Origin: Escherichia coli
Lineage (GTDB): Bacteria > Pseudomonadota > Gammaproteobacteria > Enterobacterales > Enterobacteriaceae
Reading direction: 5' to 3' (one strand)
Length of the DNA stretch: 64,000 nt
Assembly (NCBI RefSeq): GCF_013315695.1
Contig: NZ_CP054353.1
Under the pieces are notes generated by a model. The model was not told where the DNA came from. It made no database searches and was given only the letters and a program-made list of their open reading frames with translations. Shown piece after piece: positions 557 through 22,486 of this stretch (within the stretch, counting starts at the first letter, position 1; every line of letters starts with the position of its first letter). The position numbers were made by a program, and so were the translations under genes.

Positions 557-817
557 ATGCAATCACCATTACGGAATGTGCGTAAGGCGCACGGATTTAC
601 TTTGCAGCATGTTGCTGCGGGCGTTCAGGTCAATCCAGCGACGCTGAGTCGTATTGAAAGACTGGAACAAATTCCATCTATCGATCTTGCAGAACGTCTG
701 GCCAATTTTTTTAAGGGTGAAATCAGCGAAATGCAGATTCTTTATCCGGCACGTTTTCAATCTAGCCAAAACCAGAATGGGTTTAAACCACAGGAACAGG
801 AGGTAAGCCGTGGGTAA
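557..817 (+). CDS. Cro-like HTH (XRE family) regulator
   Basis: 86 aa; HTH motif FTLQHVAAGVQVNPATLSRIE; position and orientation opposite the repressor. Confidence 0.7.
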   Translation: MQSPLRNVRKAHGFTLQHVAAGVQVNPATLSRIERLEQIPSIDLAERLANFFKGEISEMQILYPARFQSSQNQNGFKPQEQEVSRG

Positions 818-1367
818 GCATCATTGGAAAGTGGAAAAACAGCCTGAGTGGTACGTGAAAGCTGTCAGAAAAACTATCGCGGCGTTGCCGGGGGGTTACG
901 CTGAAGCTGCTGAGTGGCTGGATGTAACAGAGAACGCATTATTCAACCGCCTTCGTGCAGATGGCGATCAGATTTTCCCGCTGGGATGGGCAATGGTTTT
1001 ACAGCGTGCGGCTGGCACTCACTACATTGCGGATGCTGTCGCACAGTCTGCTGGTGGGGTGTTCGTATCGCTTCCTGAAATTGAGGCAGTAGAGAACGCC
1101 GATATAAACCAGCGCCTGCTGGAAGTCATTGAACAGATCGGCAGTTATTCCAGACAGATTCGTTCAGCAATCGAAGACGGTGTAGTGGAACCGCATGAGA
1201 AGACAGCAATTAACGACGAACTGTATCTTTCAATTTCGAAGCTCCAGGAGCATGCAGCACTGGTCTACAAAATCTTCTGCGCTCCAGAAAAGAGTAACGC
1301 CCGCGAGTGTGCAGCTCCGGGCGTCGTGGCGTCGATTGCTTCTGGTTGTGGAGAAACTAACGCATGA
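810..1367 (+). CDS. Early-region hypothetical protein in the cII position (possible CII-like regulator)
   Basis: 185 aa ORF, GTG start overlapping cro stop, preceded by GGAGG; function inferred only from position. Confidence 0.45.
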   Translation: MGKHHWKVEKQPEWYVKAVRKTIAALPGGYAEAAEWLDVTENALFNRLRADGDQIFPLGWAMVLQRAAGTHYIADAVAQSAGGVFVSLPEIEAVENADINQRLLEVIEQIGSYSRQIRSAIEDGVVEPHEKTAINDELYLSISKLQEHAALVYKIFCAPEKSNARECAAPGVVASIASGCGETNA

Positions 1368-2509
1368 ATAGTTTAACGGCAAATAACCGTTTGTCGCAAC
1401 AGCTGGTGGTCAGCGTCGCTGAACACCTGTTGTTACGGCATGAATGCAGATTACCAAATCACCTGGCTGTAAGTAACCACAGAGAACTTTACCTGACTGT
1501 GGGGGGCGAGTTGTGCAGGAACTTAACCGCTGGTTTCGTGACGGAAGAGGGCTTTATGTCCATGTTATTCGTTGGGAGCCAGAAACACAGCGCGTTATCT
1601 ATCTTCGCAAAGACTACCCGCATGAGTGCTTTAGTCCTTTGTGGAAATTCAGGCGTGATTTTGTTGAGTGTGAAGGACCACCAGCATATTGATTCTGCAA
1701 TTCCGGGACGTTACACTGTTCAGGCACCTTATAAAGCGGGTGCCGGGATTGGCGTCCTGAAATTCGCACATGCGCATAACCGCGCTTCAGCGGTTTTTTT
1801 GCGCACGTTTCCTCACATCCAAATTATGGTGGGGCGTGCAGGGGCATCGAAAGATGCGCCGGGGTCATGTGCGACCGGTTACGCCAACCCTGTACGTCTC
1901 ACCACCTCTGTGATTGGCGTCCCATGTGGTGAGTTTTCAAAATTCGCACATGAGGATGTCACTATGGCAACCACCCCTACCCAAACTCACCCTAAAATTG
2001 ATGTTATCCATGGGAAGGCTGTTACCTCTTCTTTGGCCGTTGCCGAATATTTCTGCAAGCAGCACAAAAACGTTATTCAAAAAATCCAGACGCTTGAGTG
2101 CTCTGTTGAATTCACTGAGCTGAATTTTCAGCCCAGTGATTACACCGATTGCACAGGCCGCAAACTCCCTTGTTACCAAATCACCCGCGACGGTTTTGCG
2201 TTTCTTGCCATGGGCTTCACGGGGAAACGTGCTGCCCGGTTCAAAGAGGCATACATCAATGCCTTTAACCAGATGGAGAAACAGCTTTCAAATCCCTCTG
2301 TACTGAGCGACGTTGCACATAACGCCAGCGTTCTCTATTCCTACATTTCATCAATTCATCAGGTCTGGCTGCAGCAGCTTTATCCTATGTTGGCAAAAGC
2401 CGAATCTCCGCTGGCTGTTAGCTTGTATGACTATATTAATGATGCTTCGGCGCTGGCCTGCCTCATAAATTTGTCGCTGAATCCTTCAGAGGTAAGGGGG
2501 CGTAAATGA
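1364..2509 (+). CDS. Rha-family phage regulatory protein, copy 1 (Rha core from ATG 1964; N-terminal extent uncertain)
   Basis: C-terminal 180 aa carry Rha signatures (KIDVIHGKAVTSSLAVAEYFCKQHKNVIQKI ... FLAMGFTGKRAARFKEAYINAFNQME). ATGA overlap with upstream stop at 1364; internal ATG 1964 has a GAGGA RBS. Confidence 0.6.
   Translation: MNSLTANNRLSQQLVVSVAEHLLLRHECRLPNHLAVSNHRELYLTVGGELCRNLTAGFVTEEGFMSMLFVGSQKHSALSIFAKTTRMSALVLCGNSGVILLSVKDHQHIDSAIPGRYTVQAPYKAGAGIGVLKFAHAHNRASAVFLRTFPHIQIMVGRAGASKDAPGSCATGYANPVRLTTSVIGVPCGEFSKFAHEDVTMATTPTQTHPKIDVIHGKAVTSSLAVAEYFCKQHKNVIQKIQTLECSVEFTELNFQPSDYTDCTGRKLPCYQITRDGFAFLAMGFTGKRAARFKEAYINAFNQMEKQLSNPSVLSDVAHNASVLYSYISSIHQVWLQQLYPMLAKAESPLAVSLYDYINDASALACLINLSLNPSEVRGRK
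1513..1692 (+). CDS. Small hypothetical protein (59 aa, GTG start), paralog of ORF 3384..3608; overlaps the copy-1 Rha upstream frame
   Basis: Frame-1 translation VQELNRWFRDGRGLYVHVIRWEPETQRVIYLRKDYPHECFSPLWKF... looks protein-like and shows DNA and protein similarity to 3384..3608 (HVLRV...QKVI); GGGGGG RBS-like run before the GTG. Confidence 0.3.
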   Translation: MQELNRWFRDGRGLYVHVIRWEPETQRVIYLRKDYPHECFSPLWKFRRDFVECEGPPAY

Positions 2510-3387
2510 TCCGGAATATTTTCAAACTGTTTACCAATCGCCACCAGCATATTGATTCTGCAATTCCGGGACGTTACACTGTTCAGGCACCTTATAAAGC
2601 GGGTGCCGGGATTGGCGTCCTGAAATTGTCAACGGCGATGTATGACGCGCCAGCGTCTTTTTTATCGTCCGCATTTGCTCACATCCAGATTATGGTGGGC
2701 TGGGCGGGGGCACCGAAAGGTGCGCCGGTCTCCGTTGACGCCGGTTACGCCAACCCCGTCCAGTTCACCACCAGTGAAATTGGCGTTTCCGGTGGTGGAA
2801 GTTTTTCACTGTCAACGGAGGCTGCCATCATGGCTACGATCCCAGCCCTCACTCAACCTGAAATCACCATTGACAACGGCCAGGCCGTTACCACTTCTTT
2901 GGCTGTTGCCAACTTCTTCTCCAAGCGTCACGACGATGTGCTGAAAAAGATCCGCACTCTGGATTGTTCCCCTGAGTTTTGTGCCCGCAATTTTGCGGAG
3001 ACATCGATTTCGGTAAATCAACCGAACGGTGGTACACGCAAGCTCCTTTGCTATCAAATCACACGAGACGGTTTTGCGTTTCTTGCTATGGGTTTCACGG
3101 GTAAACGTGCTGCCCGGTTCAAAGAGGCATACATCAATGCCTTTAACCAGATGGAAAAACTGCTTTCAAAGCCATCCACGCTGAGCGATGCCGCAGATAA
3201 CGCCAGCGTGCTTTACTCCCACCTGTCGGTAATCCACAAGGTCTGGCTGCAGCAGCTTTATCCCATGTTGGCAAAAGCCGAATCCCCGCTGGCTGTAAGT
3301 CTGTATGACCGCATCAACGACGCGGCGCTACTGGCCAGTCTCATAAATTTGTCGCTGAACCCTTCAGAGGTAAGGGGGCGTAAATGA
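2506..3387 (+). CDS. Rha-family phage regulatory protein, copy 2 (tandem paralog)
   Basis: 293 aa; Rha motifs AVTTSLAVANFFSKRHDDVLKKIRTL and FLAMGFTGKRAARFKEAYINAFNQME; ATGA start overlapping the copy-1 stop. Confidence 0.7.
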   Translation: MIRNIFKLFTNRHQHIDSAIPGRYTVQAPYKAGAGIGVLKLSTAMYDAPASFLSSAFAHIQIMVGWAGAPKGAPVSVDAGYANPVQFTTSEIGVSGGGSFSLSTEAAIMATIPALTQPEITIDNGQAVTTSLAVANFFSKRHDDVLKKIRTLDCSPEFCARNFAETSISVNQPNGGTRKLLCYQITRDGFAFLAMGFTGKRAARFKEAYINAFNQMEKLLSKPSTLSDAADNASVLYSHLSVIHKVWLQQLYPMLAKAESPLAVSLYDRINDAALLASLINLSLNPSEVRGRK

Positions 3388-3608
3388 TCCGGAATATTTT
3401 CAAACGGTTTACCAATCATACTTTCCGTTGTCCTCGTCCGGGTCAGTGGTACACCACGCCTGCAGGGCATGTTCTACGTGTTAGCCTGGTTGACCGTGAA
3501 TGTCAGAAGGTGATTTGTGAACCGCTGGGCCGTAATTACCGCGTCAGTATGCCGCTTATAGCCTTTCGCTCCGGAAAAAACATGAAGCATCTCGGAGGTG
3601 CTGCATGA
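3384..3608 (+). CDS. Small hypothetical protein (74 aa) sharing its first 22 nt with the Rha copy-2 start
   Basis: Starts ATGATCCGGAATATTTTCAAAC, identical to 2506-2527; ATGA overlap with the Rha copy-2 stop and with the downstream replication gene start. Confidence 0.4.
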   Translation: MIRNIFKRFTNHTFRCPRPGQWYTTPAGHVLRVSLVDRECQKVICEPLGRNYRVSMPLIAFRSGKNMKHLGGAA

Positions 3609-4423
3609 GTATGGAGTTGATGGTTAAAGCGATGAAAATTCGAGTGGGAAATCCATTGCGAAAACTGGTTCTGATTAAGCTGGCTGATAATGCCAGCGAT
3701 CAGGGTGAGTGCTGGCCCAGCTACCAGCATATTGCTGACCAGTGCGAGATTAGCAAACGTTCTGTGATGAATCATATTGCGGCCCTTTGTGAGTCCGGGC
3801 TGGTAAAAAAAGTCACCCGGAAAGGTGAAAAAGGTAACTCAAGTAATATCTATCTCCTTCATCTTGATGGTGCAGGAGATTCACTAGGGGGTAGTGCAAA
3901 TAATTCACTATCTGGTGCAGCAAATTCACCAGGTAGTGCAGGAGTTGCACCAGGGGGTAGTGCAGGAGATTCACCCAGAACCAGTCACTCTTTTGAACCA
4001 GTCAAAGAACCAGTCAATGAACCAATAGCTGTTGGTGCATCTGCTGATGAGTCTGTGCGAGTTCGTTCAAACCGACCGGAATACTCTCCGGAGTTTGAGC
4101 AGGCATGGCTGGCCTATCCAAAACGTGCTGGTGGCAATTCAAAATCTGCAGCCTTCAAAGCCTGGAAAGCCCGTTTGAATGAGGGGGTAAACCCCGAAAC
4201 CATGCTGGAAGGTGTGAAACGCTACGCGGGCTGGGTATCTGCGATGGGTAACAGCGGCACACAATTTGTGAAACAGGCTGTCACGTTCTTTGGCCCGGAT
4301 CGTCATTTCGAAGAATCCTGGGAAGTTCCTGCGGTATCTGCAGTCAGACGCGAGGACCCGTACTTCAAAGCCAGTTACGACAACGTGGACTACAGCCAGA
4401 TCCCGGAAGGATTCAGGGGGTGA
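3605..4423 (+). CDS. Phage replication initiation / replisome-organizer-like protein with N-terminal winged HTH
   Basis: 272 aa; N-terminus MSMELMVKAMKIRVGNPLRKLVLIKLADNASDQGECWPSYQHIADQCEISKRSVMNHIAAL; internal iteron-like DNA repeats; position after the cII/rha block. Confidence 0.6.
   Translation: MSMELMVKAMKIRVGNPLRKLVLIKLADNASDQGECWPSYQHIADQCEISKRSVMNHIAALCESGLVKKVTRKGEKGNSSNIYLLHLDGAGDSLGGSANNSLSGAANSPGSAGVAPGGSAGDSPRTSHSFEPVKEPVNEPIAVGASADESVRVRSNRPEYSPEFEQAWLAYPKRAGGNSKSAAFKAWKARLNEGVNPETMLEGVKRYAGWVSAMGNSGTQFVKQAVTFFGPDRHFEESWEVPAVSAVRREDPYFKASYDNVDYSQIPEGFRG
3865..3985 (+). repeat. Iteron-like direct repeats inside the replication gene (candidate ori)
   Basis: Repeated motifs GGTGCAGGAGATTCAC (x2), AGGGGGTAGTGCA (x2), GGTGCAGCAAATTCACC, AGGTAGTGCAGGAG; encode a G/S/A-rich linker GGSANNSLSGAANSPGSAGVAPGGSAGDSP. 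Confidence 0.5.
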
Positions 4424-8274: not shown

Positions 8275-8646
8275 ATGCGTGATATTCAAATGGTTCTTGA
8301 ACGTTGGGGGGCATGGGTGGCAAATAATCACGAGGATGTGGAATGGTCATCTGTTGCTGCAGGTTTTAAGGGATTAATTCCTTCGAAAGTAAAATCCCGC
8401 CCGCAATGTAGCGATGACGATGGCCTGATCATTAGCTCTGCGATGACAGTTCTTAAGAAAAAGGAACCGTATCAATACGAATTACTGGAAATGTATTATG
8501 TGTATGGGGTTACATTACGGGTGTTGGGGGTAAAACTGGGGATATCACTTAATCAGGTTGTTATCAGACTGCAGAAAGCTGAAGGGTTTATTGACGGTTG
8601 TCTGGCAATGTTGGGGGTATCTTTAGAAATTGATTGTTACATATAG
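8275..8646 (+). CDS. Late-gene antiterminator Q (QuuD-like)
   Basis: N-terminus MRDIQMVLERWGAWVANNHEDVEWSS matches the QuuD/DLP12-type Q family; sits directly upstream of the late region; GGAG RBS before ATG 8275. Confidence 0.75.
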   Translation: MRDIQMVLERWGAWVANNHEDVEWSSVAAGFKGLIPSKVKSRPQCSDDDGLIISSAMTVLKKKEPYQYELLEMYYVYGVTLRVLGVKLGISLNQVVIRLQKAEGFIDGCLAMLGVSLEIDCYI

Positions 8647-8721
8647 TAATAAATTCAATCAAAGTAAATAATCATATTTTATTATAACCTCCTGATGATA
8701 CCTGTTCATTGGGAGGTTATT

Positions 8722-9339
8722 ATGGATAAAAATGTAGAGCATGTATTAGTTGATGCAATTGAAAATAAGCAATCTTTAACAGTCGTTTACTTAGGAGGGA
8801 GCCAGCCCGGAACATTAAGGAATATTTCTCCGATTAGTATAAATGGGGATAAATTGCGGGCAAGATGCCATAGTTCTGGAGCAGTAAAGGTTTTCAATCT
8901 TGGGAAAATACAGTTACCCAGTGACTCCTGCGCGGTATCTATGCACTATGGAGATTTAGAAGTTAAAGCTTATGAGACGATGCAGAGCGTAAATGACAAC
9001 TTTCATGCCCTTTATCCTGAAGGACGATGGGGTGTTGATTTTAATGAGCATCGCTTTGCTTTATTTGATTTTTTTAAAAACGGGAAACGAAAAAAAACGG
9101 CATTTATGGCAATTGAGTTCAGGGAAAGAGATGAAGAGAAAATAATAACAGGTGTAACAATTGATATTGGTATATCTGGAACAGTGATTTCTGAGAAGTC
9201 CCGAATCCCAAAAAGACGACCATGGGTAGTGGTTGGTCCCGAACACGGAGAATACAGTACTTATTCAACTTTGGACAAGGCTGCTACAGCGTTTTTTGAG
9301 AGGCTTTCGTTGATAGCATCCGGCCTGGAAGATAATTGA
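8722..9339 (+). CDS. Hypothetical moron protein (205 aa), unknown function, AT-rich
   Basis: Strong RBS GGGAGG 5 nt before ATG 8722; no recognisable motif, no signal peptide; followed by a terminator; lies between Q and the tRNA block. Confidence 0.6.
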   Translation: MDKNVEHVLVDAIENKQSLTVVYLGGSQPGTLRNISPISINGDKLRARCHSSGAVKVFNLGKIQLPSDSCAVSMHYGDLEVKAYETMQSVNDNFHALYPEGRWGVDFNEHRFALFDFFKNGKRKKTAFMAIEFRERDEEKIITGVTIDIGISGTVISEKSRIPKRRPWVVVGPEHGEYSTYSTLDKAATAFFERLSLIASGLEDN

Positions 9340-9468
9340 TTTTATGTTTGGTATTCAGAGTTCGCCGTGCTTAAGAAAGTCAAGATTCTAAAAATACTGA
9401 ATGAGCTACTTGTGTTATAACAAAAATGCTATTAGTGTGTTAAGAGTGGTTACTTCGCCACACAACTT

Positions 9469-9493
9469 AAACCCGCCACTGAGCGGGTTTTTT
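9469..9493 (+). terminator. Rho-independent terminator downstream of the moron gene
   Basis: AAACCCGC-CACTGA-GCGGGTTT hairpin followed by a T-run. Confidence 0.6.
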
Positions 9494-9617
9494 GTACCTG
9501 TAAACTTGGTGCAGTACAGTAAACACGCTGGTGGTCGTGAATACTGGCTTTTTATCTTGCTGGCTTTTTAGACAAGAGTTATTGGTATGTCACGTTAACC
9601 GGAAAGGGTAAAAAGAC

Positions 9618-9815
9618 ATGCTGAAACAGCAGGATATGACAGAAACCGCCAGAGTTGTGTTTGATGAATTAAGCGTTACCGAACCGGCGACAGTCGGGGA
9701 GATTGCGCAGAATACTTACCTTTCACGCGAACGCTGCCAGTTAATACTGACCCAGCTTGTTATGGCGGGTCTGGCAGACTATCAGTGCGGTTGTTACAGA
9801 CGCCTTCAGTCCTGA
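9618..9815 (+). CDS. Small hypothetical protein (65 aa), possible winged-helix regulator
   Basis: ORF with AAAGGGTAAAAAG region before the ATG; helix-rich sequence GEIAQNTYLSRERCQLILTQLVMAGLA; no confident family. Confidence 0.35.
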   Translation: MLKQQDMTETARVVFDELSVTEPATVGEIAQNTYLSRERCQLILTQLVMAGLADYQCGCYRRLQS

Positions 9816-9949
9816 AGGCTTTTTATTTGTGGTGAATGGGCGGCTGGTGGGGGGGCGACACCTGTCAGTCCTTTGCTTATGTGTTGATGATAATTTACCT
9901 TTTGGGGCTATAATTGAGCTAACCAATTGCTAATGAAAGTAAAATTATA

Positions 9950-10663
9950 ATGGCTGTTGTCTGTTCAGTTATCATGGTTTGCTCCCCAATTAATATTTTT
10001 CTTGAAAAGGATACGTTGTCACTTAAGCCAGGCTCAGTTGTTCTGGCCACCAAATGCATCAGGGAGCTTTTCCTTATGCATTATGGCAAAGTTAAAATTG
10101 TCGATATAAGCGAATCCGTCGTAAGTCAATATCTGGAAAGTCAGCATAAGCTGACGAGGACTCGTCTGACTGACATTCCGCTTTACCTGTTGCTGGAACC
10201 CAACAATCCTGCGTTGGCTGCGGCTTTAATTACCAGCCAGGGATTTTCCGGAGAGGCCACGGATATGTTTCTTATGATGGCCTGCCTGTCTCTGTTTGAA
10301 ACAGATGAACGGATGTCATTGTTTTTAAGTGGATGTTTATCCAGCATAAGTGCCAAAGTCAGGGCGATAATTCAGACAGATATATCAGCAAGCTGGACGC
10401 TTGGTGCGATTGCTCTACAGTTGCATATGAGTGAGAGTTTGTTAAAGACAAAACTGAAAAATGAAGGGGGCATGTTCAGTCGCTTGTTGCTGGAAGAGCG
10501 GATGCGTGTTGCTGTAAATATGTTATGTTCCCGGCATGGATATGGACAGGCTATAGCAGAAAAATGCGGTTATTCAAGCAGGTCCTACTTTATTTCTGTA
10601 TTTCACCGCTATTATGGCTTCCCGCCAGACAGATATGTATCCAGGCAAGGGCTTGATTATTGA
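9950..10663 (+). CDS. AraC-family transcriptional regulator (prophage-encoded; start uncertain)
   Basis: C-terminal AraC-type HTH (WTLGAIALQLHMSESLLKTKLKNEGGMFSRLLLEERMRVAVNML...GYSSRSYFISVFHRYYGFPPDRY). Confidence 0.7.
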   Translation: MAVVCSVIMVCSPINIFLEKDTLSLKPGSVVLATKCIRELFLMHYGKVKIVDISESVVSQYLESQHKLTRTRLTDIPLYLLLEPNNPALAAALITSQGFSGEATDMFLMMACLSLFETDERMSLFLSGCLSSISAKVRAIIQTDISASWTLGAIALQLHMSESLLKTKLKNEGGMFSRLLLEERMRVAVNMLCSRHGYGQAIAEKCGYSSRSYFISVFHRYYGFPPDRYVSRQGLDY

Positions 10664-10691
10664 TTTTCATCTGATTATTATTTTTTGGCTC

Positions 10692-10767
10692 GGCCCTTTA
10701 GCTCAGTGGTGAGAGCGAGCGATTCATAATCGCCAGGTCGCTGGTTCAAATCCAGCAAGGGCCACCA
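10692..10767 (+). tRNA. ileZ: tRNA-Ile2 (anticodon CAU, ileX/ileZ-like)
   Basis: 76 nt cloverleaf GGCCCTT...AAGGGCC-A-CCA; anticodon loop TTCATAA; close to the E. coli ileX sequence. Confidence 0.8.
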
Positions 10768-10774
10768 TCACATA

Positions 10775-10851
10775 CCGCCATTAGCTCATCAGGATAGAGC
10801 GCCAGCCTTCGAAGCTGGTTGCGCGGGGTTCGAGTCCTCGATGGCGGTCCA
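10775..10851 (+). tRNA. argN: tRNA-Arg (anticodon UCG)
   Basis: 77 nt; acceptor CCGCCAT/ATGGCGG; anticodon stem-loop CCAGC-CTTCGAA-GCTGG; T-loop GGTTCGAGTCC; 3' CCA. Confidence 0.8.
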
Positions 10852-10864
10852 TTATCTGTACCCT

Positions 10865-10941
10865 GCGTTATTAGCTCAGCCGGACAGAGCAATTGCCTTC
10901 TAAGCAATCGGTCACTGGTTCGAATCCAGTACAACGCGCCA
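10865..10941 (+). tRNA. argO: tRNA-Arg (anticodon UCU)
   Basis: 77 nt; anticodon loop CCTTCTAAG; T-loop GGTTCGAATCC; 3' GCCA; one acceptor-stem mismatch. Confidence 0.8.
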
Positions 10942-10952
10942 GACTTATTTTT

Positions 10953-10980
10953 CCCGGCTCGCTTTTGCGGGCTTTTTTTT
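10953..10980 (+). terminator. Terminator-like hairpin plus T8 after the tRNA cluster
   Basis: GCTCGC-TTTT-GCGGGC followed by TTTTTTTT. Confidence 0.45.
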
Positions 10981-11433
10981 AAATGTCTCACAATTCAGAC
11001 GGTTGACAGTTGTCTGTTTTGCGGGGAGTTTGTTAAAAGAAACTGGCATGGTGAATCCCCCTGTGCGGAGGGGCAATCAGCAACTGGTGTTTTGTCACCG
11101 ACCCTTATCCTTTCTGTGCGGGTTCAGGTGCTGATACTGAACTCACCGGGAGGCACCCGGCATCATGTGCATGATGATACAGATACGCGGCTTTAGCCCC
11201 TCTCCGGAGGGGCTTTCTTGTGGGCAAAAAAAAGCCCGAGTGGGTTCGGGCAACAGCATGAGATATACATTTTTATAATCGAATGGATTTTAACCAGAAT
11301 TCATAAGGCTGCGCAACTGCGCGGTCTTTTTCGAATTGCGGGCTGTCGTCTCTCTTCTGCCATTGTCCTGTAACTTCCGGACTTCAGCCCGCTCCTTATT
11401 TTACTCACAATATTATCCCGGCCGGGAGGATTC

Positions 11434-13395
11434 ATGGCATTTAAACACTATGACGTGGTCAGGGCGGCATCGCCGTCAGACCTTGCGAAACGACTGACAC
11501 AAAAACTGAAGGAGGGGTGGCAGCCATTTGGCAGTCCGGTGGCCATCACGCCTTATACCCTGATGCAGGCCATTGCGGCGGAAGGTGATGTCACCACACC
11601 TGTGGTGGTGAAGCCGTCGGATGGAGAAGGCGCAGTTATCAGCAACACCAGCAACCCGGAGTATTACTTTGTTGTTGCCCTGGCCGGGCAGTCAAACGGT
11701 ATGGCGTATGGTGAAGGGCTTCCGCTGCCGGAGACATATGACCGTCCGGACCCGCGTATTAAACAGCTGGCGCGTCGCAGCACTGTCACGCCGGGTGGTG
11801 CGTCCTGTAACTACAATGACATTATTCCTGCGGACCACTGCCTGCATGATGTTCAGGATTTGAGTAAGTTTTCACACCCGAAAGCCAGCGCAGCTCAGTA
11901 TGGATGCGTGGGGCAGGGATTACATATCGCGAAGAAATTGTTGCCGTTTATTCCGGCGAATGCCGGTATTCTTCTGGTTCCGTGCTGCCGTGGTGGTTCT
12001 GCATTTTTGGCGGGCGATGAAGGTACCTTCAGCGAATCCACCGGCGCAAGCGAGACCTCGGCACGCTGGGGTGTAGATAAGCCACTGTACAAGGACCTGC
12101 TTACCCGTACTCAGGCCGCACTGAAGGCCAACCCTAAAAATATTCTGCTTGCAGTGGTCTGGATGCAGGGCGAGTTTGATTTGAAACAGGGTGCATACGC
12201 CACTCAGCCGGGGCTGTTTGATTCCATGGTGGAAAAATATCGTTCTGACCTGTCGGAATTCGGAGGTCAGTGTCTCGGGGGCTCTCCGTCATCAGTTCCC
12301 TGGATTTGTGGCGACACGACCTACTACTGGAAGCAGACTTATTCTTCGCAATACGATGCGGTGTATGGTGCATATAAGACGAAATCCGCAAAAAAAATCT
12401 TCTTTGTGCCGTTTATGACGGATGAAAACGGGCGAAATGTGGGTACCAACGAGCCGTCAGAAGATCCGGATGTTGCGGATATTGGGTATTACGGAGCCGG
12501 TGGTCGAACGGACGCCAAAACCTGGACGACGGCTGACCGTAAAACGCATTTTGGATCATGGGCACGTCGTGGGATTATTTCCGACCGTCTGGCAACGGCG
12601 ATTCTTGTGCATGCCGGGAGAACCGCTGAATTCATTACCGGAAAACAGCCTGATACGGTGAAGCCCACCGGACCTTCCGGTGAAGGTACGGAGAGAGAGC
12701 CGGAAGGTCCGGTCAGTAACCGAACCCTGATGAGTCTGCTGGCGTCCGGCGAAGACCTGGCATCACAGGGCTGGCGCTATTATCACAAACCGGCGAGCGG
12801 AGACAATGTTAACAAAAACATTGCTGAAGCGGTGGTCAGTGATGCGGGGGCTACGGGAGGTAAGGCCCTGCAACTGAATAAACCGGAAAACCACATCTGG
12901 TTTCTGGAGCATGATGCAGCCGGGCAGGGGGCAGAGTTGCTGAAGAAAGGAGGACGTGTGAGCGTACGGTTTAAGTTGCCGGGTTCACTGGTGCCGAATC
13001 AGTTTGCCCTGGGCATTTACTGGCAGTTGTCGTCCCTGCCGGAGGGAGTGACGCTGGCAGAGGAAGGCAACGACATGCTGATGTCCTTCTTTCTGCAGAC
13101 GGATGCGACGAACCTGAACGCGATGCACCACAAGAAGCCGAATGCGAAGCTGGAAACGTTCGGGGTCTTTGATAACGGATGGCACACACTGGCTTTTGAG
13201 TTTGCCGGAAACAACAGCATTCAGGTGACGCCGGTACTGGATGAGAAACGGGGGACGCCGTTCACACTGGTGAAATCTCCGGCATCAGGGGCGGCGGACA
13301 AACTGCAACTGACAGGCATATCAAAGGCGGCGACATATACGCTGCTGATTGACAGTGTGAAGGTGGAAGTGAACAACGCGGATGCCGCGGCATGA
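11434..13395 (+). CDS. nanS: Prophage 9-O-acetyl-sialate esterase NanS-p (DUF1737 plus SASA/SGNH esterase)
   Basis: 653 aa; N-terminus MAFKHYDVVRAASPSDLAKRL (DUF1737); esterase motif YYFVVALAGQSNGMAYGE; sits where Stx phages carry nanS-p downstream of stx. Confidence 0.85.
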   Translation: MAFKHYDVVRAASPSDLAKRLTQKLKEGWQPFGSPVAITPYTLMQAIAAEGDVTTPVVVKPSDGEGAVISNTSNPEYYFVVALAGQSNGMAYGEGLPLPETYDRPDPRIKQLARRSTVTPGGASCNYNDIIPADHCLHDVQDLSKFSHPKASAAQYGCVGQGLHIAKKLLPFIPANAGILLVPCCRGGSAFLAGDEGTFSESTGASETSARWGVDKPLYKDLLTRTQAALKANPKNILLAVVWMQGEFDLKQGAYATQPGLFDSMVEKYRSDLSEFGGQCLGGSPSSVPWICGDTTYYWKQTYSSQYDAVYGAYKTKSAKKIFFVPFMTDENGRNVGTNEPSEDPDVADIGYYGAGGRTDAKTWTTADRKTHFGSWARRGIISDRLATAILVHAGRTAEFITGKQPDTVKPTGPSGEGTEREPEGPVSNRTLMSLLASGEDLASQGWRYYHKPASGDNVNKNIAEAVVSDAGATGGKALQLNKPENHIWFLEHDAAGQGAELLKKGGRVSVRFKLPGSLVPNQFALGIYWQLSSLPEGVTLAEEGNDMLMSFFLQTDATNLNAMHHKKPNAKLETFGVFDNGWHTLAFEFAGNNSIQVTPVLDEKRGTPFTLVKSPASGAADKLQLTGISKAATYTLLIDSVKVEVNNADAAA

Positions 13396-13546
13396 TAAAA
13401 AAAGGCCGCCAGCAATGAAGGAAAGGGATGAACTGTGTCCACTACATGAATGCTGGCGGCTGGTAAAACGACCACGATGACACCGAAGTTTGCGATATTT
13501 TTCTACAAAAATAAGTAAATCATGTCAACTATCACGGTGAGAAACC

Positions 13547-13729
13547 ATGACATTTCTGAACCAGTTAATGCTGTACTTCTGTACGGCAGTCTGTGTTATG
13601 TATCTTCTTTCGGGTGGGTACAGGGCAGTGCGCGATTTCTGGCGCAGGCAGATTGATAAAAGGGCCGCTGAGAGAATCAGCGCCAGTCAGTCAGCCGGAA
13701 GCAAACCCGAAGATCCGCTCATTCCGTAG
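13547..13729 (+). CDS. Small hypothetical membrane protein (60 aa)
   Basis: One hydrophobic helix LMLYFCTAVCVMYLLSGG then a basic tail; weak RBS; low confidence. Confidence 0.3.
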   Translation: MTFLNQLMLYFCTAVCVMYLLSGGYRAVRDFWRRQIDKRAAERISASQSAGSKPEDPLIP

Positions 13730-13766
13730 TCACTTTCTTGACAACACCTTTCAACGAGAAAATCCC

Positions 13767-14036
13767 ATGTCAGAAATCACATCCCTGGTCACTGCTGAGG
13801 CAGTGAAGGAAGTCCTGCGCTCTGAAGAAGTCCTGAGCGCACTGAAACAGAAACTCCGCCAGAACCTTGAGGCGCGTCTTGATGCAGAAGTGGATGCCAT
13901 TCTGGATGAGCTGCTGGGCGTACCAGCGGTTCCGGAGCCGGAAGGCATTGCGGATGACAGTACTGTTTCAGATGGCGTCGGGTCTCAGCCTGACGGTAGT
14001 GAAGAGCCTCAGCCTGACGGCGAAATGATGATGTAA
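13767..14036 (+). CDS. Small acidic hypothetical protein (89 aa)
   Basis: ATG 13767 inside the longer ORF-track call; acidic C-terminus ...DGSEEPQPDGEMMM; between nanS-p and the holin. Confidence 0.4.
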   Translation: MSEITSLVTAEAVKEVLRSEEVLSALKQKLRQNLEARLDAEVDAILDELLGVPAVPEPEGIADDSTVSDGVGSQPDGSEEPQPDGEMMM

Positions 14037-14111
14037 CCATGCGCAGGGGGTGTCGGTGTGAGCTGATGCCCCACTTGTTGTTGTGAGCTTCCGGATTGCG
14101 GGAGACGGGGT

Positions 14112-14327
14112 ATGTACCAGATGGAAAAAATCACAACAGGTGTGTCATACACCACGTCAGCGGTGGGAACGGGCTACTGGTTCCTGCAGTTGCTGGACAG
14201 GGTTTCCCCGTCTCAGTGGGCGGCAATAGGCGTGCTGGGGAGTCTGCTGTTTGGGCTGCTGACATATCTGACTAACCTGTATTTCAAAATCAGAGAGGAC
14301 CGGCGTAAGGCGGCGCGGGGAGAGTAA
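14112..14327 (+). CDS. Holin, phage 21 S-type (pinholin-like) with dual-start motif
   Basis: 71 aa; MYQMEK... dual Met start; ...[51 protein letters not shown] closely resembles S21. Confidence 0.85.
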
Positions 14328-14331
14328 AGTG

Positions 14332-14682
14332 ATGAATAAAAAATATGAACTGGTTGTTAAGGGGATAAATAATTACGGGGATAAGGTTACTGTTACTGTG
14401 AAGCCGGAAGGTGACGGGCAAGCGTCGCTGTTGTTGCCAGATGTGGCGATTAGTCTTGACCGTACTGAAGGTGCCACGCTGGAGTTTTACGAAGCTGAGG
14501 CGAAAAAGCAGGCGAAGCAGTTTTTCATGGATGTTGCTGCCGGGTTATGTGAAGGGGATGGTCCGTTGCCGGAAAAGCGCCCCGTAATTTTAGAGGCGCA
14601 GGATGTGTTGATAACCTACAAAGGAAAGCTACCGGGAAGAATTACTGGTTCTCTGAAGACTCCACCGGAATCACAACCTTAA
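14332..14682 (+). CDS. Hypothetical protein (116 aa) inserted between holin and endolysin
   Basis: ATG 14332 after GGGGAGAG; soluble, no known motif; unusual position inside the lysis cassette. Confidence 0.5.
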   Translation: MNKKYELVVKGINNYGDKVTVTVKPEGDGQASLLLPDVAISLDRTEGATLEFYEAEAKKQAKQFFMDVAAGLCEGDGPLPEKRPVILEAQDVLITYKGKLPGRITGSLKTPPESQP

Positions 14683-14745
14683 TTCACTGACCGGAACAGA
14701 TAAACCTGTCCGTGGGCAGAAACCGATAAATCCTGATAAATATCC

Positions 14746-15279
14746 ATGAACGCAAAAATCAGATACGGCCTGTCGGCTGCCGTTCTGGCGCTGATTGCCG
14801 CAGGTGCGCCTGCGCCTGACATTCTCGACCAGTTTCTGGATGAAAAGGAAGGTAACCACACCACGGCATACCGTGATGGTGCGGGTATCTGGACTATCTG
14901 CCGCGGTGCCATCCTGGTGGATGGCAAACCTGTCGTTCCGGGCATGAAGTTGTCGAAGGAAAAATGCGACCAGGTTAACGCCATTGAGCGTGATAAAGCG
15001 CTGGCGTGGGTGGAGAAAAACATCAGAGTGCCGCTGACCGAACCCCAGAAAGCGGGGATCGCGTCATTCTGTCCGTACAACATTGGTCCCGGTAAGTGTT
15101 TCCCGTCGACGTTTTATAAACGAATTAATGCAGGTGATCGCAGGGGAGCGTGTGAGGCGATTCGCTGGTGGATTAAGGACGGTGGCAGAGACTGCCGTAT
15201 CCGCTCAAACAACTGTTATGGTCAGGTATCCCGTCGTGACCAGGAGAGCGCGCTGGCGTGCTGGGGAATCGACAGATAA
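14746..15279 (+). CDS. SAR endolysin (phage 21 R-type lysozyme, GH24)
   Basis: 177 aa; N-terminal signal-anchor LSAAVLALIAAGAPAP; lysozyme motifs EGNHTTAYRDGAGIWTICRGA and YNIGPGKCFPSTFYKRINAGD. Confidence 0.85.
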   Translation: MNAKIRYGLSAAVLALIAAGAPAPDILDQFLDEKEGNHTTAYRDGAGIWTICRGAILVDGKPVVPGMKLSKEKCDQVNAIERDKALAWVEKNIRVPLTEPQKAGIASFCPYNIGPGKCFPSTFYKRINAGDRRGACEAIRWWIKDGGRDCRIRSNNCYGQVSRRDQESALACWGIDR

Positions 15280-15438
15280 GCAGAATATTTTGCTGAAAAA
15301 TAAGGCATGGCCACGCGGGCGGATAACACGAAATCCTGCGAACTGGCGAAACGTAAGTGAATAAAAGTAAAAACCCCGTTTGTTGGCACCAAGCGGGGTT
15401 TTGTGTTTCCTGACTCCGGAAAAGTCAAAGGAGAAAGT

Positions 15439-15576
15439 GTGTTTGATTTTAGCAAACTGATTCGGGAGATTCGAGTGATGGCTGAAAAATTATCCACCTG
15501 GAAGTTCATTCTTATCTGGCTGGTGTTTGTGATTATGGCCTCCGGTTATTTCATCGGTCAGATACGCTGGTGGTGA
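15439..15576 (+). CDS. Small hypothetical membrane protein (45 aa, GTG start) between endolysin and Rz
   Basis: AAGGAG RBS 6 nt before GTG 15439; hydrophobic core WKFILIWLVFVIMASGYFIG; stop 1 nt before the Rz start. Confidence 0.3.
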   Translation: MFDFSKLIREIRVMAEKLSTWKFILIWLVFVIMASGYFIGQIRWW

Positions 15577-15577
15577 A

Positions 15578-16015
15578 ATGAACCGCGTACTGTGCGTGGT
15601 CATCATTGCCCTGCTGGTGGCCTGTGGTGCGCTTAGTCTGGGGCTGAATCATTACCGTGATAACGCCATGACCTACAAAGAGCAGCGCGATAAAGCCACA
15701 TCCATCATCGCTGATATGCAGAAGCGTCAACGTGATGTAGCAGAACTCGACGCCAGATACACAAAGGAGCTTGCTGATGCTAACGCGACTATCGAAAGTC
15801 TCCGTGCTGATGTTTCTGCTGGTCGTAAGCGCCTGCAAGTCGCCGCCACCTGTGCAAAGTCAACGACCGGAGCCAGCAGCATGGGCGATGGAGAAAGCCC
15901 AAGACTTACAGCAGATGCTGAACTCAATTATTACCGTCTCCGAAGTGGAATCGACAAGATAACCGCGCAGGTTAACTACCTGCAGGAATACATCAGGACG
16001 CAATGCCTGAAATAA
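15578..16015 (+). CDS. Rz i-spanin
   Basis: 145 aa; N-terminal TM then coiled-coil; embedded Rz1 in the +1 frame. Confidence 0.8.
   Translation: MNRVLCVVIIALLVACGALSLGLNHYRDNAMTYKEQRDKATSIIADMQKRQRDVAELDARYTKELADANATIESLRADVSAGRKRLQVAATCAKSTTGASSMGDGESPRLTADAELNYYRLRSGIDKITAQVNYLQEYIRTQCLK
15771..15962 (+). CDS. Rz1 o-spanin lipoprotein (embedded in Rz)
   Basis: Lipobox LLVVSAC followed by a Pro-rich stretch KSPPPVQSQRPEP; wholly inside Rz in another frame. Confidence 0.7.
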   Translation: MLMLTRLSKVSVLMFLLVVSACKSPPPVQSQRPEPAAWAMEKAQDLQQMLNSIITVSEVESTR

Positions 16016-18308: not shown

Positions 18309-18818
18309 GTGGCTACGCAGACTGAAGTTGCCAGGCATTTAAGTCTGACCGATCGCCAGCTTCGCAGATTGCAGAAATTGCCGGGTGCCCCGATATCGAA
18401 TAAGCGAGGGCAACTGGATCTGGATGCCTGGCGCGATTTTTACATATCGTATCTGAGAAGAAGTAAAAACGATGTGCCTGATGGCGATAGCGAAGACGAC
18501 TATGAGGAGAAATTGCTTATTGCCAGATGGGAACTGACAGCAGAACAGGCTGTTACACAGCAGTTAAAAAATGAGGTGTCAAAAGGAAAACTTATTGACA
18601 CCGGGTTCTGTATTTTTGCCCTCAGCAAGCTGGCAATGGCGTTATCCAGTACGCTTGATTCCATCCCTTTATCCATGCAGCGACAGTTTCCTGATTTAAC
18701 ACCGCGCCATCTTGACCATCTGAAAACCCTTATTGCGAAGGGGGCAAATCAGTGTGCGCGGGCGGGGGATAAATTACCGGATTTACTCGATGAATATATC
18801 AGAGCAACAACTGAATAA
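18309..18818 (+). CDS. nu1: Terminase small subunit (lambda Nu1 homolog)
   Basis: C-terminal half ...TGFCIFALSKLAMALSSTLDSIPLSMQRQFPDLTPRHLDHLK...LLDEYI parallels lambda Nu1; GTG start downstream of cos. Confidence 0.85.
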   Translation: MATQTEVARHLSLTDRQLRRLQKLPGAPISNKRGQLDLDAWRDFYISYLRRSKNDVPDGDSEDDYEEKLLIARWELTAEQAVTQQLKNEVSKGKLIDTGFCIFALSKLAMALSSTLDSIPLSMQRQFPDLTPRHLDHLKTLIAKGANQCARAGDKLPDLLDEYIRATTE

Positions 18819-20707
18819 TATGATGAGTGCTGTCACAACAGCATTACAGCCCCTGATAAGGGCATTGCCGGTGACGCCAGTTGAATGGGCTGATCAAAAT
18901 TATTATCTGCCTAAAGAATCTTCATATGGTGAGGGAGAATGGAAAACGCTGCCGTTCCAGATCGCCATCATGAACAGCATGGGGAATGATCAGATCCGGA
19001 CTGTTAATCTGATTAAATCTGCCCGTGTTGGCTATACAAAGATGTTGCTGGGGGTGGTCGGGTATTTTATTGAGCATAAATCCCGAAACAGTCTGCTTTT
19101 TCAGCCCACGGATTCTGCCGCTGAAGATTTTATGAAGTCTCACGTGGAGGCGACGATTCGGGATGTGCCATGTCTGAAAGACCTTTCTCCATGGCTGGGG
19201 CGTAAACATCGTGACAATACTCTCACGCTGAAACGCTTTTCATCGGGTGTGGGCTTCTGGTGCCTGGGCGGCGCTGCCGCCAAAAACTACCGTGAAAAAT
19301 CCGTGGACGTGGTCTGCTATGACGAACTTTCCTCGTTCGAACCGGATGTCGAAAAAGAGGGTTCGCCAACCCTGCTTGGGGATAAACGTATTGAGGGCTC
19401 TGTATGGCCCAAATCCATTCGCGGCTCGACGCCTAAAATCAAAGGCACCTGCCAGATCGAAAAAGCGGCCAACGAGTCGGCGCATTTCATGCGTTTTTAT
19501 GTGCCCTGCCCGCACTGTGGGGAGGCGCAGTATCTGAAATTTGGCGATGAGTCCACGCCTTTTGGCCTTAAATGGGAGAAGGACAGCCCCGAAAGCGTTT
19601 TCTACCTCTGTGAACATCATGGCTGCGTGATCCATCAGTCTGAGCTTGACCAGAGCAACGGGCGGTGGATCTGTGAAAACACGGGGATGTGGACCCGCGA
19701 CGGTCTGACGTTTTTCAGCGCTGCGGATAATGAAATTCCGCCGCCGCGCTCCATCACATTCCATATCTGGACGGCGTACAGTCCGTTCACCACCTGGGTA
19801 CAGATTGTCTATGACTGGCTGGATGCACTGAAAGATCCCAACGGCCTGAAAACCTTTGTGAACACCACGCTGGGCGAGACCTGGGAAGAGGCCGTGGGCG
19901 AAAAACTCGATCACCAGGTGCTGATGGATAAGGTTGTGCGTTACACGGCTGCGGTGCCTTCCCGGGTGGTTTATCTGACGGCGGGCATTGACTCGCAGCG
20001 AAACCGTTTTGAGATGTATGTCTGGGGATGGGCTCCGGGAGAGGAAGCCTTTCTGGTGGATAAAATCATCATTATGGGGCGTCCCGATGAGGAAGAGACG
20101 CTGTTACGTGTGGATGTGGCGATCAACAAAAAATACCGCCATGCAGACGGAACCGAAATGACCATTTCCCGTGTCTGCTGGGACACCGGGGGGAATTGTC
20201 TATCAGAGGTCAAAAAAACACGGTGTTTTCCGGGTGCTGCCGGTAAAAGGTGCATCTGTTTATGGCAAGCCGGTGATCACCATGCCAAAAACCCGCAATC
20301 AGCGGGGCGTGTATCTGTGCGAAGTGGGGACGGACACCGCAAAAGAAATTCTCTATGCCCGTATGAAAGCCGATCCCACGCCTGCGGATGAAGCCACGTC
20401 GTATGCCATCCGTTTTCCTGATGATCCGGAGATTTTTTCGCAGACAGAGGCGCAGCAACTGGTGGCGGAAGAGCTTGTGGAGAAGTGGGAAAAAGGAAAG
20501 ATGCGTCTGCTGTGGGATAACAAAAAGCGGCGTAACGAAGCGCTGGACTGCCTGGTGTATGCCTACGCGGCATTACGTGTGTCCGTGCAACGCTGGCAGC
20601 TTGATCTGGCTGTACTGGCAAAATCCCGGGAAGAAGAGACGACCCGGCCAACCCTTAAAGAACTGGCAGCGAAGCTGTCCGGAGGAGTGAATGGTTACAG
20701 TCGCTGA
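18790..20707 (+). CDS. A: Terminase large subunit (lambda gpA homolog) with an apparent +1 frameshift in a G6 run near 20188-20193
   Basis: Two overlapping ORFs (18733..20391 and 20171..20707) together align with lambda gpA (...ISRVCWDTGG | IVYQRSKKHGVFRV...); the frame changes at CCGGGGGGAATT. Confidence 0.8.
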
Positions 20708-20897: not shown

Positions 20898-22486
20898 AAC
20901 GAACGCCTGTCCTGATTGATGTGAACGGCGTTCCGCTTCGGGAGAGCCTCAGCTACAACGGTGGCGGTGCAGGATTTGGCGGGCAAATGGCAGAGTGGTT
21001 GCCACCCTCGCAGAGTGCCGATGCGGCCCTGCTGCCCGCGTTGCGTCTGGGGAATGCCCGTGCAGATGATCTGGTGCGCAATAACGGAATAGCGGCCAAT
21101 GCGGTGGCCCTGCATAAGGATCACATTGTCGGGCATATGTTTCTGATCAGTTACCGTCCGAACTGGCGCTGGCTGGGGATGCGGGAGACCGCGGCAAAAA
21201 GTTTTGTCGATGAGGTGGAGGCGGCCTGGTCAGAATACGCAGAAGGGATGTTTGGTGAGATCGACATGGAAGGGAAACGCACGTTCACGGAATTTATCCG
21301 TGAAGGTGTGGGCGTTCATGCGTTTAACGGCGAAATCTTTGTGCAGCCGGTCTGGGATACGGAGAGCACGCAACTGTTTCGTACGCGTTTTAAAGCCGTG
21401 AGTCCGAAACGGGTGGACACGCCAGGACACGGTATGGGGAACCGTTTTCTGCGGGCCGGTGTGGAGGTCGATCGATATGGTCGTGCCGTTGCGTACCATA
21501 TCTGTGAGGATGATTTTCCTCGCTCCGGGAGTGGACGATGGGAACGGATCCCGCGTGAACTTCCCACCGGGCGTCCGGCCATGCTGCATATTTTCGAGCC
21601 GGTGGAGGACGGGCAGACCCGTGGGGCCAATCAGTTTTACAGCGTAATGGAACGGCTGAAGATGCTCGATTCCCTGCAGGCAACACAGCTTCAGTCGGCC
21701 ATAGTGAAGGCGATGTATGCAGCGACGATTGAAAGTGAACTTGATACCGAAAAGGCCTTTGAATATATCGCCGGTGCGCCGCAGGGGCAGAAGGATAATC
21801 CGCTTATTAATATTCTGGAGAAGTTCTCCACCTGGTATGACACGAATAGCGTGACGCTGGGCGGTGTCAAAATTCCGCACCTTTTCCCCGGTGATGATCT
21901 GAAACTTCAGACCGCGCAGGATTCAGACAATGGATTTTCGGCGCTTGAACAGGCGCTGCTGCGGTATATCGCCGCCGGTCTTGGCGTTTCCTACGAACAG
22001 TTGTCCCGTGATTACTCGAAGGTCAGTTATTCAAGTGCCCGCGCATCCGCCAATGAGTCGTGGCGCTATTTTATGGGGCGGCGAAAATTTATTGCGTCCC
22101 GGCTGGCCACGCAGATGTTTTCCTGCTGGCTGGAAGAGGCACTTCTTCGGGGGATTATTCGTCCGCCACGGGCGCGTTTTGATTTTTATCAGGCGCGATC
22201 AGCCTGGTCACGGGCTGAGTGGATTGGAGCCGGAAGAATGGCCATTGACGGGCTCAAGGAGGTTCAGGAATCAGTGATGCGCATTGAGGCCGGACTGAGC
22301 ACGTATGAGAAAGAGCTGGCGCTGATGGGCGAGGATTATCAGGACATTTTCCGCCAGCAGGTCAGGGAATCTGCAGAGCGGGAAAAAGCCGGACTCTCAC
22401 GTCCGGTGTGGATAGCGCAGGCGTATCAGCAGCAGATAGCGGAGAGTCGCAGGCCGGAAGAGGAGACAACACCACGTGAGACGTAA
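20894..22486 (+). CDS. B: Portal protein gpB
   Basis: 530 aa; lambda-like order and size; ATGA coupling with W. Confidence 0.85.
   Translation: MKRTPVLIDVNGVPLRESLSYNGGGAGFGGQMAEWLPPSQSADAALLPALRLGNARADDLVRNNGIAANAVALHKDHIVGHMFLISYRPNWRWLGMRETAAKSFVDEVEAAWSEYAEGMFGEIDMEGKRTFTEFIREGVGVHAFNGEIFVQPVWDTESTQLFRTRFKAVSPKRVDTPGHGMGNRFLRAGVEVDRYGRAVAYHICEDDFPRSGSGRWERIPRELPTGRPAMLHIFEPVEDGQTRGANQFYSVMERLKMLDSLQATQLQSAIVKAMYAATIESELDTEKAFEYIAGAPQGQKDNPLINILEKFSTWYDTNSVTLGGVKIPHLFPGDDLKLQTAQDSDNGFSALEQALLRYIAAGLGVSYEQLSRDYSKVSYSSARASANESWRYFMGRRKFIASRLATQMFSCWLEEALLRGIIRPPRARFDFYQARSAWSRAEWIGAGRMAIDGLKEVQESVMRIEAGLSTYEKELALMGEDYQDIFRQQVRESAEREKAGLSRPVWIAQAYQQQIAESRRPEEETTPRET

Follow-up and report, generated by a model that had tools for sequence, protein, structure and literature searches.

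A probably unfilled moron slot between the tRNA genes and nanS-p of an stx-negative lambdoid prophage in Escherichia coli

A 64-kb stretch of Escherichia coli DNA (assembly GCF_013315695.1, contig NZ_CP054353.1), hereafter the window, carries the late-control region of a lambdoid prophage laid out like that of the Shiga toxin (Stx)-converting phage 933W; all coordinates below are window positions. On one strand, the antiterminator gene Q is followed by three tRNA genes with anticodons CAU, UCG and UCU, a spacer homologous to that of 933W, the esterase gene nanS-p, and a class II holin gene with endolysin and Rz genes. An earlier note on this DNA had read the same order (Q, a moron, three tRNAs, a spacer of about 490 bp, nanS-p and S21-type lysis genes), and ARAGORN, Rfam, Pfam and PHROGs as well as homology to 933W confirm it. 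The tRNA genes were called with ARAGORN, and covariance models of small RNAs (sRNAs) and tRNAs were taken from Rfam with the gathering score as the cut-off. Protein domains were assigned with Pfam, PHROGs and NCBIfam; Q, the WYL protein, NanS-p, the holin and Rz had no NCBIfam family and were assigned from Pfam and PHROGs. Proteins were compared with the window by tblastn and the DNA arms by blastn, using phage 933W (AF125520, Stx2a), an Stx1 phage (AP005153) and EDL933 (NZ_CP008957) as references, and terminator-like and sigma-70 promoter-like sites were obtained from scans that were compared with the expectation from shuffles. The features from the first tRNA gene to nanS-p are as follows.

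10692-10767, + strand: tRNA gene with anticodon CAU, homolog of 933W ileZ (ARAGORN; Rfam, 72 bits)
10775-10851, + strand: tRNA-Arg (UCG) gene, argN homolog (ARAGORN; Rfam, 56 bits)
10865-10941, + strand: tRNA-Arg (UCU) gene, argO homolog, predicted to read AGA/AGG (ARAGORN; Rfam, 64 bits)
10956-10979, + strand: intrinsic terminator-like hairpin (10956-10973) with a T-run, at the end of the left homology arm (terminator scan); aligns with the 933W "terminator upstream of the stx genes"
10980-10983, no strand: empty cargo (moron) slot, TAAA, 4 nt in place of 1,335 bp of 933W (stx2 promoter, stxA2, stxB2)
11017-11225, + strand: STnc100-family sRNA gene, counterpart of EcOnc27/PasD-like, ending in the terminator hairpin 11195-11214 (Rfam RF02076)
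11229-11281, - strand: AsxR/AgvB-family anti-sRNA-like gene, convergent with STnc100 (Rfam RF02703)
11287-11316, - strand: putative promoter of the anti-sRNA, predicted for this locus (-35 TTGCGC, 18-nt spacer, -10 TAAAAT, +1 near 11281; hexamers as in 933W)
11305-11433, + strand: nanS-p leader, highly conserved, with two terminator-like hairpins (segment identities; RNA fold z=-2.5)
11434-13395, + strand: nanS-p-type sialate O-acetylesterase gene, 653 amino acids (aa) (Pfam; RefSeq "SASA family carbohydrate esterase")

The three tRNA genes are the only ones that ARAGORN finds in the whole window, and their order and homology identify them as the ileZ-argN-argO cluster of 933W. The left homology arm, which spans ileZ, argN, argO and the terminator, aligns window 10688-10979 with 933W 21116-21408 at 94% identity, and the right arm aligns window 10984-11541 with 933W 22744-23296 at 80% identity, beginning 42 nt past the stxB2 stop codon and extending into L0105. 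The 492-bp spacer between the tRNAs and nanS-p (10942-11433) is, by this homology, the counterpart of the Stx-phage spacer between stxB and nanS-p, fused directly to the post-tRNA terminator. Since stxA has 960 bp, the spacer cannot accommodate it, and no open reading frame (ORF) wholly within the spacer encodes more than 53 aa. When StxA2/StxB2 and Stx1A/Stx1B were searched against all 64 kb by tblastn, only noise was returned (best E about 0.7-1.3), and the 1,335-bp stx cassette of 933W gave zero blastn matches beyond chance across the same 64 kb. Thus, the pair of stxA and stxB in the late region that defines an Stx-converting phage is absent from the window. These searches bear out the earlier claim that the interval 10942-11433 holds neither stx nor an ORF large enough for StxA. 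The alignment to stx flanks that had been proposed as a check for deletion scars shows that both flanks match 933W, and no deletion scar or direct repeat at the junction is evident on reading the junction alignments.

The uninterrupted junction was then sought across genomes with window 10900-11060 as the query, and it was found in 1,068 of 5,426 complete E. coli genomes (about 20%), and non-Stx prophages of O157:H7 EDL933 are among its carriers; where a match is split, the break lies at 10976-10979. A survey of slot content with a 2.5-kb query found the slot either empty or occupied by stx2AB, by TerB and DUF3927 or by IraM and DUF3927, and the empty state was the commonest among the arrangements sampled. 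An EDL933 non-Stx prophage is collinear with the window through the junction at 86.5% identity, so its slot is empty too. In AREA_486 (NZ_CP123346), whose tRNA arm is 97.6% identical to that of the window, a 749-bp cargo of TerB and DUF3927 begins exactly after the position that matches window 10979 and is followed by two tandem copies of the right-arm (STnc100) module (positions 1795-3300 of the compared locus), which suggests that cargo segments travel with a copy of STnc100 at their 3' end. The stx-negative PhiR12 phages, which are without the tRNAs, have the right arm in common with the window from 10976, and within the phage collection they are the closest to the spacer (83%); Stx2 phages reach about 78%. 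The motif that marks the boundary of the right arm, TAAAT..CTCA(C)AATTCAG..GTTG, is also present in the Stx1 phage AP005153, about 50 nt past stx1B; in this phage, significant blastn homology to the window is found only from 11046 onward. Because the same boundaries recur with different cargos and the empty junction is widespread, these comparisons indicate that the slot is a general moron insertion point, at which stx is one of several optional cargos and the empty state is common. The empty slot is therefore most likely, as judged from the alignments, an unfilled state of a recombination hot spot rather than the product of an stx deletion. In this light the late-region architecture, which the earlier note had assigned to Stx-converting phages, does match theirs in gene order, but it is a widespread lambdoid layout with optional stx and is not specific to Stx phages.

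The locus itself is ordinary and widespread, is already annotated in S88 and other strains, and has already been described in the literature; the layout has reportedly been known since the O157 genome papers and from the Schmidt laboratory's studies of NanS-p. Over the 8.1 kb around the locus, chromosomes of human isolates match the window at 99.1-99.9% identity, among them that of the neonatal-meningitis strain S88 (NC_011742, 571.4-579.5 kb), and RefSeq annotates every gene and tRNA in this stretch; the same 8.1 kb with the junction occur at no less than 99% identity in 26 complete genome records from independent projects. S88 and strain 582 (NZ_CP120568) carry the same prophage, and strain 582 differs from the window in an IS21 insertion after the lysis genes and in an intact terL. 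The window is collinear with strain 582 from the early region through the lambda-like head and tail genes to about 42 kb, where the prophage edge (about 41900-42200) gives way to the host genes from btsS (yehU) to metG. In strain 582, the other end of the prophage adjoins mlrA (yehV) (positions 2320-4328 of the compared locus), and the prophage in the window appears to be integrated likewise between mlrA and btsS. This is presumably the attachment region of the Stx1 prophage CP-933V/Sp15 in O157:H7 (yehV/mlrA); in these strains of the extraintestinal pathogenic E. coli (ExPEC) type, the Stx-phage attachment site is occupied by an stx-negative prophage.

The closest counterparts outside this group differ from the window in distinct ways. 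An EDL933 non-Stx prophage (1.264-1.270 Mb; cf. Sakai Sp3, 4, 9, 10, 11, 17) shares with the window Q, the morons including the AraC regulator, the CAU/UCG/UCU tRNAs, a cargo-free spacer of about 490 bp and the SASA/nanS-p gene, and convergent sRNAs in the spacer, as in the window, are known from non-Stx O157 prophages (PMC4104026). The EDL933 prophage differs in that its DNA identity is about 86% at the junction, its anti-sRNA segment is another allele (64% over 11234-11283), and its host is an enterohaemorrhagic E. coli (EHEC) strain, whereas the host here is an S88-like extraintestinal one. Phage 933W (Sp5) resembles the window not only in the tRNA arm and the spacer but also in the positions and orientations of STnc100 and AsxR and in its holin S (98.6%) and endolysin R (93%). 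In contrast, 933W contains the stx promoter, stxA and stxB, and its Q and NanS-p are 56% and 60% identical to those of the window. In addition, the morons that separate Q from the tRNAs in the window (about 2 kb) are different, and its virion genes form a lambda-like module that includes long-tail genes (gpG, gpT, tape measure, gpJ), unlike that of 933W, which is a short-tailed phage.

The spacer had been described in the earlier note as holding only hairpins; Rfam shows that this is wrong, since an STnc100-family sRNA gene lies on the + strand and an AsxR-family anti-sRNA gene on the - strand. The STnc100 model (RF02076) is matched from end to end (1-206 of 206) with 131.7 bits against a gathering score of 47 (E=1.4e-29), and the AsxR model (RF02703) with 63.0 bits against a gathering score of 63, exactly at the threshold, which places both genes in their families. 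The AgvB model (RF02702) gives 43.4 bits, below its gathering score of 56, and the GcvB-type motif is absent. Each of the two genes ends in a terminator-like hairpin. The anti-sRNA gene of the window is 53 nt long; like AsxR and AgvB, it converges with a + strand sRNA 3' of the moron site and keeps the promoter hexamers and a Rho-independent terminator; compared with AsxR of 933W, it is identical at 47 of 53 nt, with the terminator hairpin kept and the 3' part near-identical. The same allele is present, without any change, in S88, strain 582 and AREA_486, and RefSeq leaves both sRNAs unannotated in the S88-type records. Weak Rfam hits to Plastid-ycf2, Leu_leader, YrlA, snoZ30 and STnc130 were rejected, being far below their gathering thresholds and overlapping the tRNAs or the terminator hairpins.

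Hfq crosslinking by Tree et al. 2014 (PMC4104026) placed the convergent sRNAs EcOnc02, which is AsxR, and EcOnc27 3' of stx2B in Sp5, and reported "a similar gene organization" in Sp3, 4, 9, 10, 11, 15 and 17; among these, Sp15 is the Stx1 prophage and the others are non-Stx. According to the same study, the short anti-sRNAs (51-60 nt) combine a variable 5' region of 14-18 nt with a 3' region of about 42 nt that is conserved among them, and the transcription start of AsxR in Sp5 was mapped by 5' rapid amplification of cDNA ends. STnc100 has been located 75 nt downstream of the stx2 operon (PMC12370729), which agrees with the layout of the window because 42 nt and 33 nt add up to this distance. 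STnc100 has also been related to PasD, within a synteny of PasD/STnc100, sialate esterase, PasA/C, holin and lysozyme (bioRxiv 10.64898/2026.05.13.724894). In the lysogen, the convergent pair in the spacer probably acts on the sRNA networks of the host.

Between Q and the tRNAs lies a block of morons, as follows.

8275-8646, + strand: antiterminator Q gene (phrog_79, Q-like, E=1e-43; RefSeq "antiterminator Q family protein" in the 99% identical S88 locus; 56% identical to Q933)
8722-9339, + strand: moron ORF, WYL-domain protein (RefSeq "WYL domain-containing protein"; phrog_8498)
9618-9815, + strand: small ORF of 65 aa, with the terminator-like hairpin 9802-9819 after it (RefSeq hypothetical protein; phrog_331; terminator scan)
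9950-10663, + strand: moron ORF, YdeO/GadX-like AraC-family regulator, Psr/PatE-type prophage regulator (NCBIfam, homology)
10653-10681, + strand: promoter-like site directly 5' of the tRNAs, counterpart of 933W pT (TTGATT-17-TATTAT, 9/12 consensus matches)

The block from Q to the tRNAs (8647-10691) has a GC content of 41.5%, compared with 51-55% around it. For the AraC-like moron, the best NCBIfam match is YdeO (4e-31), with GadX next and every match below its equivalog cut-off, and its product shares 90.7% identity with the homolog that the EDL933 non-Stx prophage carries at this position. The regulator resembles the Psr/PatE regulators of acid resistance and type III secretion; homologs of this family of prophage regulators have been reported in neonatal-meningitis E. 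coli (PMC10877973). The WYL moron contains 32.7 ATA and 28 AGA+AGG per 1000 codons, and the two morons together contain 26.6 ATA and 17.7 AGG, compared with 5.9 and 2.7 in the host genes of the window, 1.5 and 1.5 in nanS-p, and 36.8 and 4.9 in stx2AB. Since the WYL and YdeO-like AraC genes are rich in ATA, AGA and AGG codons and stx is absent, these two adjacent low-GC morons are the most plausible clients of the tRNAs here, as far as codon counts can tell.

The CAU tRNA differs from ileZ of 933W by one substitution, and its acceptor stem contains the pairs C4-G69 and C5-G68, which we take to be TilS determinants, as in tRNA-Ile2. It thus looks like a tRNA-Ile2 and would read AUA if it is modified with lysidine. 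Annotation of this tRNA is inconsistent: ARAGORN and RefSeq call it Met here, and the EDL933 and AREA_486 alleles, which are one base apart (position 32, C to T), are called Ile. The promoter-like site at 10653-10681 corresponds in its place before the first tRNA to the annotated pT of 933W, as a consensus match only. Terminator-like sites are enriched in the region (9 found, 2.8 expected from shuffles); those on the + strand lie at 9527-9548, 9802-9819, 10956-10973 and 11195-11214, with two more in the nanS-p leader.

By analogy with 933W and lambda, Q would modify RNA polymerase at a Q-adjacent late promoter after induction, and the modified polymerase would pass a series of intrinsic terminators, one behind the small ORF, one behind the tRNAs, one that closes STnc100 and two in the nanS-p leader. 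Such readthrough would lead to expression of nanS-p and of the S21-type holin, endolysin and Rz genes. Promoters of their own would drive the tRNAs, the morons and both sRNAs in the lysogen, and the three tRNAs would decode AUA, CGN and AGA/AGG.

The product of 11434-13395 is a predicted esterase of the NanS-p type, with DUF1737 at residues 3-50, a modest SASA match at 83-274 (E=2.8e-8) and DUF6645 at 503-616; it has the NanS-p architecture and lies 5' of the lysis genes. An AGQSNG (GQSN-type) motif is read in its translation, and it is 60% identical to L0105 of 933W over the full length. This domain architecture of NanS-p has been described in a paper that also places the S genes of Stx2a phages among the P21 holins (PMC10462455), and nanS-p alleles are found in both Stx and non-Stx prophages (PMC8065619, PMC10462455). 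Around the start of the gene, both 933W and the EDL933 non-Stx prophage match positions 11334-11483 (about 100 nt of leader plus the initial 50 nt of nanS-p) at 90-100% identity, and the neighbouring segments are 56-88% and the proteins 60% identical. The leader may be a constrained 5' untranslated region or a recombination linker. The lysis genes that follow are listed below.

13547-16015, + strand: lysis cassette of DUF1378, DUF826, holin, YdfR-family ORF, endolysin and Rz (RefSeq; PHROGs)
14112-14327, + strand: class II (S21-type) holin gene, 71 aa (PHROGs; RefSeq; 98.6% identical to 933W S)
14332-14682, + strand: YdfR-family ORF (RefSeq)
14746-15279, + strand: endolysin gene (PHROGs; 93% identical to 933W R)
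15578-16015, + strand: Rz spanin gene (PHROGs; RefSeq)

A 71-aa class II holin followed by an endolysin is the composition of an S21-type cassette (pinholin and signal-anchor-release endolysin), and the hydrophobic N-terminus of the endolysin points to its signal-anchor-release character. The stretch between nanS-p and the holin gene (13396-14111) holds the DUF1378 and DUF826 ORFs; in related prophages the preprint on Pas sRNAs puts PasA/PasC there (bioRxiv 10.64898/2026.05.13.724894), and no Rfam family covers PasA/PasC.

Further along, terL (18790-20704) has an 11-bp deletion compared with the intact gene of strain 582, and the resulting frameshift near 20194 leaves ORFs of 533 aa and 100 aa; RefSeq marks terL of S88 as frameshifted too. 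Because terL is frameshifted, the prophage is probably defective in packaging. At the left edge, window 1-1275 is unlike strain 582 and the next 16 kb are 99.9% identical to it, which suggests a different immunity or early module there, and two adjacent genes for Rha-family regulators (about 1364-3387) are paralogs with 78% identity. In the host DNA, the region 52400-59000 (yehL/yehK to metG) matches strain 582 only in patches, with gaps at 52.4-53.3 and 54-59 kb and 85% identity over the segment with the yehI paralog, which points to strain-specific variation in the DUF4132 (yehI-like) genes.

Taken together, we put at roughly 80% the probability that this is the late-control region of an stx-negative lambdoid prophage, integrated at mlrA-btsS of an extraintestinal-type E. 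coli, whose unoccupied moron slot is an unfilled recombination hot spot (filled elsewhere by stx1, stx2, TerB+DUF3927 or IraM) and not the trace of an stx deletion. Descent from an Stx-converting phage by a recent deletion of stxAB, as in EHEC strains that lose stx, would fit the homology of the window flanks to Stx-phage flanks and the location of the prophage at the yehV/mlrA site, which we take to be the one used by the Stx1 phage of O157:H7. However, we regard such a descent as highly unlikely, because the protein and DNA searches of the 64 kb found no stx remnant, the host is of the ExPEC type, and both breakpoints coincide with module boundaries common to unrelated cargos, both of which a random deletion would rarely hit. 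Furthermore, the flanks have diverged from every Stx phage in the collection: they are 94% and 80% identical to 933W, with NanS-p at 60% and Q at 56%, and no Stx phage of the collection exceeds about 78% in the spacer. Dozens of independent genomes of the ExPEC type contain the identical empty junction, non-Stx prophages of O157 and O111 contain it at 95.7%, and the empty junction is common to prophages that differ by 5-14%. Documented loss of stx in EHEC is usually loss of the whole prophage, which also counts against a recent deletion. Thus, of the two origins that the earlier note had left side by side, an stx-negative relative is well supported, and a loss of stx finds no support in view of the missing remnant and scar, the shared module boundary, the 1,068 of 5,426 genomes with an empty junction and the low identity of the spacer to Stx phages. 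An assembly artefact, in which lambdoid repeats were collapsed or mis-joined at the tRNA and nanS-p repeats, has a practically negligible probability; long repeats common to lambdoid prophages do confound assemblers (PMC8065619), but the 26 independent complete records contain the same 8.1 kb with its junction, the junction itself recurs throughout the genome census, and the window contains no other stx sequence.

Several points weigh against our reading of an unfilled slot in this prophage. Repeated loss of stx is listed as possible for related loci (bioRxiv 10.64898/2026.05.13.724894), which would also favour a deletion. In addition, an ancestral module that carried stx or another cargo could have been replaced long ago by an empty module through homologous recombination between co-resident lambdoid prophages. 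The conserved flanks are suited to recombination (tRNA arm 94-98%, nanS-p leader 90-100%), identity changes abruptly along the region in a mosaic manner, and the duplicated STnc100 module beside the cargo in AREA_486 is a recombination footprint. We consider this replacement unlikely, since the empty state is the commonest among the sampled arrangements; the sequence gives no direction of exchange, and the present data cannot separate a replacement from a slot that never had cargo. As for the position of the prophage, its left end with the integrase and mlrA lies outside the window and was placed from strain 582. As for late control, pR'/qut/tR' were sought next to Q and the late promoter and qut site were not found: the DNA proximal to Q is not alignable with 933W or the EDL933 non-Stx prophage, and the sigma-70 scan shows no enrichment of promoter-like sites in the region (7 found, 6.1 expected). 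As for the sRNA pair, the AsxR match sits exactly at its gathering score, and of the six positions (of 53) at which it differs from AsxR, four fall in the 5' region that determines the target. RNAduplex with the terminator of FnrS gave -7.6 kcal/mol for the window allele and -10.1 kcal/mol for AsxR, values that were reached by 193 of 500 and 127 of 500 shuffles, respectively. The FnrS query was verified as a single copy between zntB and dbpA that is 100% identical in 5,392 genomes (Rfam frnS, 134.8 bits). Since AsxR itself also fails to exceed the shuffles, this computation cannot decide the target. The threshold score, the 5' changes and the duplex energies together make the function of the anti-sRNA uncertain.

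With the slot read as unfilled, the practical value of the locus is that of a clean reference for the unoccupied stx moron slot, in which the breakpoints 10979/10984 mark the joins of stx1, stx2 and TerB. The target of the variant anti-sRNA allele is the sole point here with some novelty. It is conceivable, although we think it rather doubtful, that the gene at 11229-11281 is a functionally distinct allele that is fixed in a prophage carried by extraintestinal and neonatal-meningitis E. coli, given that one of its four 5' changes falls within the stretch of AsxR that RNAduplex pairs with the FnrS terminator. If the anti-sRNA were to sponge a core sRNA other than FnrS, the "empty" slot region would itself be a regulatory cargo, through which the sRNA networks of the host would be rewired in a pathotype other than EHEC. 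More generally, because about 20% of complete E. coli genomes contain the empty junction, the tRNAs, nanS-p and the STnc100/AsxR-type sRNAs are not markers of Stx phages, which is relevant to the flank-based detection of stx phages, to the calling of "stx-lost" strains and to the annotation of prophage sRNAs.

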